Positions 2,528 through 7,909 of a stretch of DNA of 64,000 nucleotides are shown here, in pieces. Each line of letters begins with the position of its first letter. Position 1 is the stretch's first letter. Below the pieces are notes generated by a model. It saw nothing but the letters and a program-made list of their open reading frames with translations. It was not told where the DNA came from and searched no databases. Source of the stretch: Oligoflexales bacterium (lineage in GTDB: Bacteria; Bdellovibrionota_B; Oligoflexia; Oligoflexales; JAPPIL01); the NCBI GenBank assembly GCA_965215515.1, contig OZ244057.1, positions 1,184,001-1,248,000 of the forward strand, given 5' to 3'. Position numbers and translations under genes: made by a program.

Positions 2528-5500
2528 ATGATCTACTACTTCGGCTATGGCTCAAATATGAACATGACCTCTTTGCAGGCCAAGGGAGTTGAGCCGAGTT
2601 TCTCCGATCCCGCTGTTTTGCAAGATTGGGAACTGGCATTCAATGTCTGTGATTTTTTTCGCATAGAGGGTGGCACAGGCAACATTCGTCGCGCCGCAGG
2701 CAAGGAAGTACACGGGGTAGTGCATAGTTGTCATGCCGATAGTTTGCGTCGTCTCGATGAGCTAGAAGCTTATGGCATATCTTATGACCGTATCGCAGTA
2801 GATGTTACCAGTTATGATGGGCAACGCCACAAGGCTTTCGCTTACGTAGGTTTGTGTGACAGAATGAAGGATGGTCTGCAGCCTTCACATCGCTACCTCA
2901 ACATCATGATTGAGGGAGCGAGAAAGATGGAGTTGGAAGATGCTTACATCAACAAGCTGAAACGCATAGAAGTTAGGCCCGCACCAAATTACGGCCCTTT
3001 TAATTTTTCTAAAAAAAACAACAAAGTGTTCAGCGCGGCGGAGCTGGCACAGTTACCGCACCATACAGCTTTGGCGGGGGCGGTGTTTAACATGCAAAAC
3101 GCACGGGAAGAGCATGCTTATCTGAAAAAATTTTTTAGCGGCAAAGATATGACAGTTTTTTTTCTCAAGCGTATGGACATAAGTAGTGGCGAAGAAACCC
3201 TTGAACATGCAACAGCAGTTGGGTTATCCAACTTACAAAAGCGCTATCTCAATGCTTATCTGCATGAATTCAAACGTGAATATGAATTCATTGGCTGTAT
3301 GAATTATCGTATAGATCTTTCCTATCGCTCACCGACACCGCGCCTCGATCTTAGCAATCCGAGTCGTTCTGCGTCATCACGGGTGATTTTACAAACAGCC
3401 GAGCTTGTCAATGACATTTTGGGGCATGAAAATCTTGGTTTTTTGTCGAGTGATCGTGGCCTGATACCAGGCAAAGCTTTTCCTGAGCGTTTACCGCATT
3501 ATTTTGATGCTTGGGAGGAAATTACTGAAAACCTTCCTATGCATTATACTTCTCTACGCTTACGTCATGTTGTTGATGCAATGCCTGTTTTGCGTGCTGA
3601 TGATAGTAAACTCGATGGCAATTGTCTCATACGTGCTTGTGCTTTATTGTCGATGTTGTCGCATGCTTATTGGTATGTGCGTCGTTATCCACCCGCACAT
3701 GGCTTGCCTGTGCAATTGCGTAAACCGTGGGAAACAGTGCAACAGCGTTTGCGTCGCCCTGTTGGCGTGCTACACTATATCGATCTTATCGTATATAATT
3801 GGCAGTTCAAGCAAAAAGATCGCGAAGATAATTTTGATTTAAGTAATCTTGATTTACTTTTTCCTACTGTCAACAACCCTTCTGAGCAAATTTTTTATCT
3901 TACTCAGTTAGAAATACTGGCACACTGTTCTCCTATTGTGCCAGCTATTGTGAGAGCACAGGAAGCCATCGTCCAAAATGAGCTCGAGGCTTTGAAAGAT
4001 TCTTTACGCACTATTATTATTTGTTTAAAAAAAATCGTGCGCAAATCTTTGTTCAACATTGATCCTAATCGCTACAGCAAAAATTATGTTAATCATGTTG
4101 TATGGGCAAAAACAGTCGCGCCTTTTGCGGTGCCTTTTCGTGCCAAAGCGCTGGGAGCAAGTGGCACATCTTCCCCGATTTTTAATATTCTCGACACGTT
4201 CTTTGGACGCATGCACCATAAAACTTTTCTCGGCAAAGAGATAAAAGCACTACGGGAAACTTATCCCGTCTTCTGGCAAAAATTTATTGAAGCGGTGTCA
4301 CAGATTTCTTTGCGTGATTACGTTCATCGTATCGATGATCCTACCCTCACTAATCTTGTCAGTGAAGCTGTTGATATCTATGCTGGGGAGCATGGTTTTC
4401 TCGGTCGGCATCGCATGAAAGTTTTTGGTTACTTGGAGATGGCATTTAAAGTTGGTAGAGATGTAACTATCGGAGGCTTTGCAGGCAAATTCAAGGATCG
4501 AGAGCATGAGCACGTCGATGCTCAATTGGAGTGGTCACGACTTGAGCGTTTAGAAACGTTTCCTCGTGATTGTTATTTTGGCTACATAAAAGCTGTCGGA
4601 CAGACACACAACAATGCCACCGCGAATGTGAAACATGTTGTCATCGATGTAGAAGGTCTCGGTGTGCGTTATGAGCCAGGCGATCGCTGTTTAATTTTAC
4701 CTGAACATAGTGAGGAAATAATTGCTGCGACTATGCGAGCATTACAAGCTAAGGAAAAGGAGAAAAAAATAATTCTCTCGGAAGAGTGGCGAAAGGCTAT
4801 CAAGTTGCGTTATGGCTATGCTAAGGCACAAGAACTACCGCTAGAAGTTTTTCTGCGTTTTGCCCAGCTGCGCCCTGTATCTTTACGTATTGCACATGCT
4901 CTGTATACTGTAAGTAACAGTAATTTTTTGCGCAAGGAAATAAGCGCTCAGACTACGGCACGCTTTGAGGTCTGGGATGTGCTCAAGATGTTGAGCAGCG
5001 ACGGGTTTGATGTGCGTAGACTGCTCGATAGCAAGCCCGATGATCCTGCCTACCTTGCACAGGTTTTGCCCCCTGAAAATTTTAGAAACTACACGATCGC
5101 TTCTGCCATGGATGCCAGTGAGGGCGATAGTGCACATGAAATTCATCTCACGGTGGGGGTTGTTAGTTATGAAAATAATGGCAGGAAGTGTGTGGGCACT
5201 GGTTCCGGTTTTTTAGCTCGCAGTCTCGGCCGTGATGATCCGATTTCGTTTAGAATCGAGCATCCACCGCGTTTTAGTTTACCTGCTGATCCCCGCACGC
5301 CTATCATGATGATTGCAGGGGGGACGGGGGTAGGGGCATTTCGTTCTTTTATTTTTGAGCGCATGCGAGACCCACAGGCGGGCGAGACTTGGTTGTTATT
5401 TTTTACGCAATCACCAGAATATTTTTACTATCAAGATGATCTCTTACATGCTTTGAGCAATGATTTTCTTAAATTATTTGTCAAATTTTCTGCTGCCGAT

Positions 5501-7909: not shown

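Follow-up and report, generated by a model that had tools for sequence, protein, structure and literature searches.

Predicted fusion of an IDO-type heme oxygenase, a flavin reductase and cytochrome b5 with a GAF-adenylate cyclase in an Oligoflexales bacterium

A 64,000-nucleotide stretch of an Oligoflexales genome (contig OZ244057.1 of assembly GCA_965215515.1, positions 1,184,001 to 1,248,000; hereafter the window, in whose coordinates positions are given) contains an open reading frame (ORF) at 2528..7909 on the plus strand that encodes 1793 amino acids without interruption. Its product joins a GGCT domain, a heme domain with homology to IDO, a flavin reductase, a cytochrome b5 domain and a helical bundle to a GAF-adenylate cyclase, and its N-terminus agrees with that of the relative P0002. 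A preliminary description, made from the sequence alone, had read the locus as one unbroken, AT-rich frame fusing these domains. The frame and its composition are as described there (GC content of 0.436 for the gene versus 0.535 for the 64-kb window), and Pfam places every domain named in that description close to its proposed position. The genome carrying the ORF (G000) is a single contig of 2.18 Mb. The part preceding the GAF-adenylate cyclase, residues 1 to 1419, is referred to below as the megaenzyme; all of the domains described lie on the plus strand.

The heme domain occupies residues 272 to 681 (3341..4570). The Pfam family IDO (PF01231) matches residues 307 to 610 at E = 7.3e-32, its 111.1 bits lying above the cut-off of 26. 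An AlphaFold2 model of residues 220 to 1417, built with family alignments (predicted local distance difference test, pLDDT, 88.6; predicted template modeling score, pTM, 0.86), was used for fold comparison in an all-against-representatives structural search. The domain matched IDO2 (21ok_A; Z 41.6, root-mean-square deviation (rmsd) 2.1 Å over 357 residues, 27% identity) and IDO1 (5wmu_A; Z 39.6), with more distant matches to PrnB (Z 25.9), SO4414 (Z 24.3), and TDO (Z 15.0). Judged by this model, the domain is of true IDO type, PrnB and TDO being much farther from it than IDO1 and IDO2 are, in keeping with the IDO/PrnB-like assignment made earlier. The histidine of the RHRMKVFGYL motif, which had been put forward as the candidate proximal ligand, is His628 (nucleotides 4409-4411); it is invariant in family alignments of 12 and of 73 sequences and lies inside the structurally aligned range. 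From its position we take it to be the equivalent of His346 of IDO1. Residues typical of the IDO distal pocket are conserved as well, in the Phe456-Tyr457/Thr459 stretch and in a Gly-Ser-Gly-Thr loop at 543-547.

The heme domain is followed at residues 690 to 1097 (4595..5818) by a CysJ/CPR-type FAD and NAD(P)H module that lacks an FMN domain. Pfam NAD_binding_1 matches residues 928 to 1056 (32.7 bits versus a cut-off of 22), and the family profile aligns with E. coli SiR-FP (CysJ) at E = 2.6e-54 through the C-terminal aromatic last residue. Fold matches include the sulfite reductase flavoprotein (Z 37.0) and the FAD domain of P450 BM3 (Z 35.2), and P450 BM3 reductase, NOS, and flavohemoglobin are among the structural neighbors. 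The NCBIfam cysJ model matched solely from profile position 247 onward, which is its C-terminal FAD/NADPH half, and no flavodoxin-like (FMN) domain was found among the Pfam and NCBIfam matches of the ORF. The protein is thus predicted to carry only the FNR-like half of a diflavin reductase. A cytochrome b5 domain comes next, at residues 1105 to 1185 (5840..6082; Pfam Cyt-b5, PF00173, at residues 1111 to 1181, 61.1 bits versus a cut-off of 23.7). Its two histidines, His1141 of the HPGG motif and His1164, are invariant across the aligned family members, and its fold match has a Z of 14.9 with an rmsd of 1.1 Å over 80 residues. Both the FNR-type reductase and the HPGG-bearing cytochrome b5 had been recognized before, as had a helical linker behind them, which AlphaFold2 models as a helical bundle at residues 1196 to 1399 (6113..6724) with pLDDT mostly >90. 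This bundle, of unknown family, is present throughout the megaenzyme family and has conserved polar residues (Glu1212, Asn1215, and Lys1351, which are invariant, and also His1249). Nothing was retrieved for it from the ESM Atlas, and Pfam searched at E 10 gave just Vma12 (E 0.12). One further candidate, a de novo TIM barrel matched in a PDB sequence search (E 0.0008), was treated as spurious.

At the N-terminus, residues 1 to 145 (2528..2962) form the GGCT/AIG2-like domain that the first reading had placed there. The Pfam families GGACT and AIG2_2 (PF06094, PF13772) both match residues 4 to 144 past their cut-offs, with 37.2 and 39.4 bits, respectively. The domain has a YGSN motif and Glu80; the glutamate is kept in all 43 of the 43 family rows having a GGCT domain and YGSN in 93-95%. 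We take the YGSx motif and the glutamate to be the catalytic elements of GGCT proteins, and by its conserved Glu80 the domain is probably catalytically intact and handles a gamma-glutamyl group. Plant AIG2 proteins are linked to tryptophan-derived metabolism, which is mentioned here as background and not used as evidence. Between the GGCT and heme domains, a linker at about residues 155 to 265 (2990..3322) possibly has a degenerate b5-like fold without the second heme histidine. Aligned with the family's own b5 domain by hhalign, it stays in register over 48 columns (E 0.006), at a probability of 6.3%. In this weak match a histidine of the linker aligns with the first, HPGG, histidine and the second has no counterpart. 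No Pfam match was found for the linker even at E 10, nor any in the ESM Atlas, so of the degenerate b5-like segment proposed earlier the in-register alignment remains, at low probability and with no family match behind it.

The remainder of the protein was modeled separately (residues 1418 to 1793; pLDDT 94.5). In this model a long helix, about 45 residues in length, joins an alpha/beta domain to the cyclase domain. The alpha/beta domain, residues 1420 to 1564 (6785..7219), is a sensor domain of GAF fold, with matches to 3k2n (Z 13.3 over 161 residues), 3o5y (Z 13.0 over 144), 6oza (12.2), PDE6 (12.0), and PDE2A (11.6) that span residues 1-183 of the cyclase-part model. Pfam recognizes GAF_2 in 16 of 55 members of the cyclase family (best E 1.8e-5) and GAF in 2 of the 55, and neither in the giant protein itself. 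The signaling helix spans residues 1565 to 1608 (7220..7351; helices 148-182 and 184-191 in cyclase-part numbering) and leads into a class III adenylate cyclase catalytic domain at residues 1615 to 1793 (7370..7909). Pfam Guanylate_cyc (PF00211) matches residues 1624 to 1758 with 33 bits against a cut-off of 21.9, and the catalytic domain matches CyaB in fold (Z 23.7, rmsd 1.7), as well as CyaC and Cya2; whole-chain fold matches are the sensor-helix-cyclase proteins 6fht, OaPAC, and bPAC. The GAF-like plus class III cyclase region of the preliminary description is thereby recovered, the sensor by its fold and the cyclase by Pfam and its residues. Asp1628, Lys1668, Asp1672, Arg1730, Asp1732, Asn1741, and Arg1745 are invariant in the 55 cyclase-family sequences and presumably include the two metal-binding aspartates, the Lys/Asp pair that selects ATP, and the asparagine and arginine of the transition state. 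From the Lys/Asp pair the predicted substrate is ATP, and the cyclase part is expected to be active as a dimeric adenylate cyclase gated by its GAF domain. In the GAF domain, His1467 (6926-6928) is nearly invariant in the 55 family members, within a T-[LV]-H-P-E motif. Heme is bound through a histidine in some GAF sensor domains, and His1467 is a candidate ligand contact.

The fusion junction lies at 6725..6787 and consists of a variable tail of the former upstream gene followed by a retained ATG at 6785-6787 (Met1420). The tail is about as long as the tails of relatives, and a complete cyclase N-terminus lies downstream of it; relative to the overlapping ATGA arrangement found in relatives (see below), a one-base frame change suffices for fusion. 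A purine-rich stretch precedes the cyclase start codon in the congener G001. Since this stretch is missing in G000, the cyclase part of G000 is probably made solely within the fusion. Read support across the domain junctions, which had been named as the check on a chimeric assembly, was examined over 5900-7909. Logan contigs of two samples, X1 (depth 37) and X2 (depth 8.7), cover this range with 0 differences and 0 gaps; the two belong to one study, and the assembly may itself have been built from them. Contigs of the samples X5 and X6 cover parts of the range only. A 194-nucleotide X6 contig from an independent study (depth 4.1) bridges 6741-6934 with 0 differences, so that the junction is unchanged in X1, X2, and X6. 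The remaining X6 contigs are 151 nucleotides long, which we take to mean short-read data.

In close relatives, the two parts are separate genes. Among 41 related genomes, matches of the full-length type are present in 5 (G000 to G003, and G039). The congener G001 and the family-mate G003 have the big gene and a cyclase gene of 374-378 amino acids overlapping by four bases, ATGA, the sequence arrangement of classic translational coupling. In a second congener, G002, a spacer of about 125 nucleotides separates the big gene from the cyclase gene downstream, and there is no ATGA overlap. Protein identity between G000 and G001 is 72-78%. The six closest protein clusters (78-81% identity) stop at 1417-1426 amino acids, and in ten close stand-alone cyclases (374-379 amino acids) the starting methionine sits at the position of Met1420. 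Fused forms were found nowhere else: none of 95 homologous protein clusters has a cyclase domain, and in a HMMER search with residues 1190 to 1793, a query that also took in the helical bundle, none of the best 150 of 844 representatives at E <= 1e-30 is fused, all being 163-576 amino acids long. Because the cyclase is a separate downstream gene in G001, G002, and G003, the fusion appears to have arisen recently, through the merging of two reading frames in this lineage alone. The megaenzyme gene of G002 is itself in two overlapping frames, with the break near query residues 578-585; this may reflect a pseudogene or else an indel error of that single-contig assembly.

The pairing of megaenzyme and GAF-cyclase extends beyond these relatives. 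In a metagenome-assembled genome of the Kofleriaceae, a GAF-cyclase with 40% identity is the adjacent gene on the same strand. In G039, a homologue of 410 amino acids with 28% identity lies on the minus strand (L021, 6161-7393), convergent with the megaenzyme gene and about 1.2 kb away; no Pfam Guanylate_cyc match was found in it at E <= 0.001, and its cyclase domain may be degenerate. A histidine kinase gene of 368 amino acids stands between the two in G039. Full-length relatives of the GAF-cyclase are also present in alphaproteobacteria, and the GAF domain occurs in 13 of 131 Bdellovibrionota genomes. Taken over the loci surveyed, the pair looks recurrent, not obligate. In P0197 (483 amino acids), this GAF domain (about 200 residues at 37% identity) is fused to HisKA/HATPase instead of a cyclase. 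The contig of P0197 equals in length (2,784,202) the one with the megaenzyme homologue P0037, and the arrangement may be an output-domain swap beside that enzyme.

A full-length search recovered 95 protein clusters homologous to residues 1 to 1419, together with three further matches confined to the cyclase part. Sixty-five of the 95 have the architecture GGCT-IDO-reductase-b5 (about 1400-1850 amino acids), and 30 lack the GGCT domain (about 1010-1380 amino acids). A genome scan identified 65 loci of this family in at least six bacterial phyla, with hosts including Oligoflexales, Oligoflexus, Poribacteria, Polyangiaceae, Kofleriaceae (Myxococcota), many Chloroflexota, Vicinamibacterales, Streptomyces, and Chitinophaga, among others. 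The proteins bear generic names such as "cytochrome b5 domain-containing protein" and "sulfite reductase alpha subunit-like flavoprotein", and literature searches aimed at the architecture found no description of an IDO-reductase-b5 fusion. Residues 1 to 1419 therefore belong to a widespread, uncharacterized family whose members have already been sequenced. The preliminary description knew of no protein with this full architecture, which holds for the fusion to a cyclase and not for the megaenzyme; nor does the protein look like a single bespoke design, given that the cyclase is a gene of its own in G001 to G003 and that the rest belongs to a common family.

Signaling genes recur beside members of this family. 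In 22 loci (L026-L076), a CBS-pair protein of about 190 amino acids is encoded directly upstream on the same strand (median gap of 34 nucleotides), and these loci have the forms without GGCT. A PAS-HisKA-HATPase-REC kinase is a neighbor in 13 loci and a cNMP-binding protein in 4; by our own count from the neighbor lists, at least one signaling neighbor of these kinds is present in 40 of the 65 loci. Farther upstream in Chloroflexota loci are genes for HpcH-type aldolases (8 loci) and RidA/YjgF proteins (6 loci).

Within the window, the giant gene belongs to a low-GC stretch that starts near 361. Two ORFs on the minus strand at 361-2422, of 317 amino acids (without a Pfam match) and 332 amino acids (with a weak VWA match), have a GC content as low as that of the giant gene and are distant paralogues of one another (22% identity match). 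Both are syntenic upstream of the megaenzyme gene in G002, at 67% identity, and no counterparts were found within 10 kb of it in G001. Downstream, a convergent Peripla_BP_2 gene for a binding protein of the iron-siderophore/heme/cobalamin type (7906-8793, minus strand) overlaps the stop of the giant ORF by 4 nucleotides and is followed by ABC-transporter genes. GC content rises sharply from this gene (7906) onward.

The reading we favor, to which we give roughly an even chance, is that of a recent in-frame fusion of adjacent genes for a self-contained heme oxygenase and a GAF-cyclase that is proposed to report on it by cAMP. Within the one chain, electrons would pass from NAD(P)H to FAD in the CysJ/CPR-type module, on to the b5 heme, and from there to the IDO-type heme. 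We propose this order because of the types of module present, because the b5 domain sits where diflavin reductases have their FMN domain, and because the physiological reductant of IDO has been suggested to be cytochrome b5 (PMC4191572). The b5 domain would hand over single electrons, and the heme, kept or made ferrous in this way, would bind O2 and oxidize an aromatic, probably indole-like, substrate. The GGCT/AIG2 domain would probably remove or cyclize a gamma-glutamyl group of the substrate or product. The GAF-helix-cyclase part would dimerize and form cAMP once a small ligand occupies the GAF domain, and if that ligand were tied to the oxygenase reaction (as substrate, product, or redox state), cAMP would report flux or demand. 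The tie is proposed because the genes are fused here, are coupled by ATGA in relatives, and are paired again in a second phylum-level group, which together suggest that oxygenase and cyclase work together. A complex prediction of residues 1099 to 1417 against the GAF-cyclase part scored 0.00, which is evidence in neither direction. Of the earlier picture of a self-sufficient oxygenase wired to a second messenger, the first half fits the domain set, with its own NAD(P)H-FAD-b5 chain, and the wiring is inferred from fusion and gene neighborhood.

Several observations weigh against this reading. On the side of the oxygenase, FAD_binding_1 at residues 696 to 895 scores 32.1 bits, marginally below its cut-off of 32.3. 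Free tryptophan, which had been considered as a substrate, is doubtful because in a phmmer pairwise alignment with IDO2 the arginine that binds the tryptophan carboxylate in IDO1 (Arg231) is opposite Tyr520, beside a gap, and no conserved basic residue was found in this stretch of the family consensus. Further, G000 yielded no match for kynureninase, TDO, or the PF04199 formamidase. Free tryptophan is probably not the substrate, although this is a hint and not proof. Since dioxygenases need reduction just occasionally, a permanently fused reductase may also mean a different chemistry. On the side of the cyclase, the fused form is seen in one lineage only and so may be neutral, and a GAF-cyclase was identified within the examined flank, often a short one, in at least 5 of the 65 family loci (the three close relatives, the Kofleriaceae genome, and G039). 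Seven of nine checked GAF-bearing Bdellovibrionota genomes are without a megaenzyme that could be found, and one has it on another contig; the 844 representatives noted above make the GAF-cyclase a large stand-alone family as well. A contig of sample X5, from another study (depth 2.5), joins 7378 to 7448 with 69 nucleotides missing in frame. This would take out residues 1618 to 1640, including the metal-binding Asp1628, and may be either a cyclase-dead allele of another population or a low-depth error. Finally, the cNMP_binding domain (PF00027) was not found in G000 or in G001 to G003, each of which has a GAF-cyclase, so that no canonical cAMP receptor is evident in them; G039 has eight such domains. 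G000 has two class III cyclases, the giant ORF and an ORF of 780 amino acids.

It is possible, if somewhat improbable, that the fusion is real and of no consequence, a small indel at the overlapping stop and start having joined two parts that work as before, with no allosteric link between them. The restriction of the fusion to this lineage, the size of the host genome (2.18 Mb against about 3.0-3.1 Mb in its congeners), the mostly independent occurrence of GAF-cyclases, the splitting of the big gene in G002, and the low-depth X5 variant without the codon for the metal-binding aspartate are all consistent with this. However, the ATGA overlap in G001 and G003 and the pairing in the Kofleriaceae and in G039 argue for a shared function, and the catalytic residues are intact in both halves.

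We hold with the same reserve a view of the heme domain as a monooxygenase, or another oxygenase of the IDO/TDO/PrnB superfamily, that would consume NAD(P)H stoichiometrically on a metabolite other than tryptophan, possibly a gamma-glutamylated one, within a specialized pathway, with the cyclase as a mere co-regulated neighbor. A fused reductase and b5 domain are typical of continuous electron demand, as the likeness of the reductase to those of P450 BM3, NOS, and flavohemoglobin suggests. The apparent lack of conservation of the carboxylate-binding arginine, the lack of kynureninase, formamidase, and TDO among the genes found, the fold shared with PrnB-type relatives (Z 25.9), and the aldolase and RidA-type genes near some loci point the same way. 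Nevertheless, in fold and sequence PrnB (Z 26) and TDO (Z 15) are far more distant from the domain than IDO1 and IDO2 are (Z 40-42, 20-27% identity), and the window shows no evident biosynthetic gene cluster surrounding the gene.

A full enzyme-coupled receptor, in which the GAF domain reads oxygenase turnover or the state of the heme (the oxygenase integrating O2, NAD(P)H, and an indole-like or gamma-glutamylated metabolite) and directly sets cAMP, seems unlikely to us. Less likely again is a protein whose IDO-type heme mainly senses gas or redox state (O2, NO, CO), with the b5 domain and reductase keeping it ferrous and the cyclase as output. The recurrence of signaling genes (cyclase, PAS-HK-REC, CBS, cNMP-binding) beside the family, a layout like that of known sensor cyclases, and the failure to find kynurenine pathway genes in G000 would accord with such a sensor, as would the parallel with sGC, whose ferric heme is reduced by cytochrome b5 reductase 3 (CYB5R3; PMC7949132). 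Set against this are the conserved residues of the distal pocket, which are typical of IDO, and the conserved catalytic GGCT domain, which implies a small-molecule substrate; moreover, most family members have no output domain, and the cyclase has a GAF sensor of its own. Very improbably, the genes are separate in the organism and were joined in the assembly by a 1-nucleotide error, either near one of two A6 stretches (6755-6760 and 6773-6778) or where the ATGA once stood. In favor of such an error, a change of +1 or -1 nucleotide upstream of 6785 meets TAG within about 11-25 nucleotides and restores two overlapping genes, and the fused protein clusters with no other sequence. There is no record of the libraries of X1 and X2, which could be the assembly's own, and the big gene of G002, likewise assembled as a single contig, is broken into two frames. 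Against it, the X1 (37x) and X2 (8.7x) contigs and the bridging contig from an independent study all have the same junction, and the tail of ordinary length is followed by an intact cyclase start.

How cells keep IDO reduced has long been debated. A natural family in which IDO heme, b5, and NAD(P)H-FAD reductase share one chain is independent evolutionary evidence for the route from b5 to IDO, and the family offers a self-contained system in which IDO reduction can be studied. As an unstudied family across at least six phyla, it may also hold a new reaction or pathway. The one-off cyclase fusion serves as a Rosetta-stone hint: it points to a specific partner and, in cAMP, to a read-out that can be measured when approaching the substrate or signal. 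Should the stronger, receptor form apply, the protein would be a bacterial single-chain counterpart of sGC with its b5-reductase repair system, the target of its cAMP would be new as well, as no canonical cNMP-binding receptor was found in the lineage, and the family would be a general module plugged, in different lineages, into cyclase, histidine-kinase, CBS, or cNMP-binding partners.

The megaenzyme resembles several known systems in part. With the eukaryotic IDO1 and IDO2 it shares the IDO fold and the conserved candidate proximal histidine. There, however, b5 and the b5 or P450 reductase are separate partners, whereas here they are in one chain with the heme domain, together with GGCT and helical domains; the carboxylate-binding arginine is apparently missing, and the enzyme belongs to a bacterium, where the search turned up no kynurenine pathway. 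Far more distant are PrnB and SO4414, which are likewise bacterial and share the superfamily fold (Z 25.9 and 24.3), but which are single-domain proteins without fused redox partners.

Among self-sufficient redox fusions, P450 BM3 (CYP102A1), flavohemoglobin, and CysJ provide the precedent for a CysJ/CPR-type FAD/NADPH module, here too fused to a catalytic heme domain. In Ncb5or, too, b5 occurs together with an FNR-type reductase, and the CS-b5R module of that protein (6mv2) gives a match of Z 18.4. The protein described here differs from these in having no FMN domain, in having an IDO-type heme in place of a P450 or globin, and in its order of catalytic heme, reductase, and b5. The cyclase part has the same layout of sensor, long helix, and class III domain as other sensor-helix cyclases, including GAF-cyclases, bPAC and OaPAC, engineered phytochrome-cyclases, and sGC. 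Its GAF domain, in contrast, is too divergent for Pfam, and its cyclase is covalently joined to an oxidoreductase of 1419 residues.

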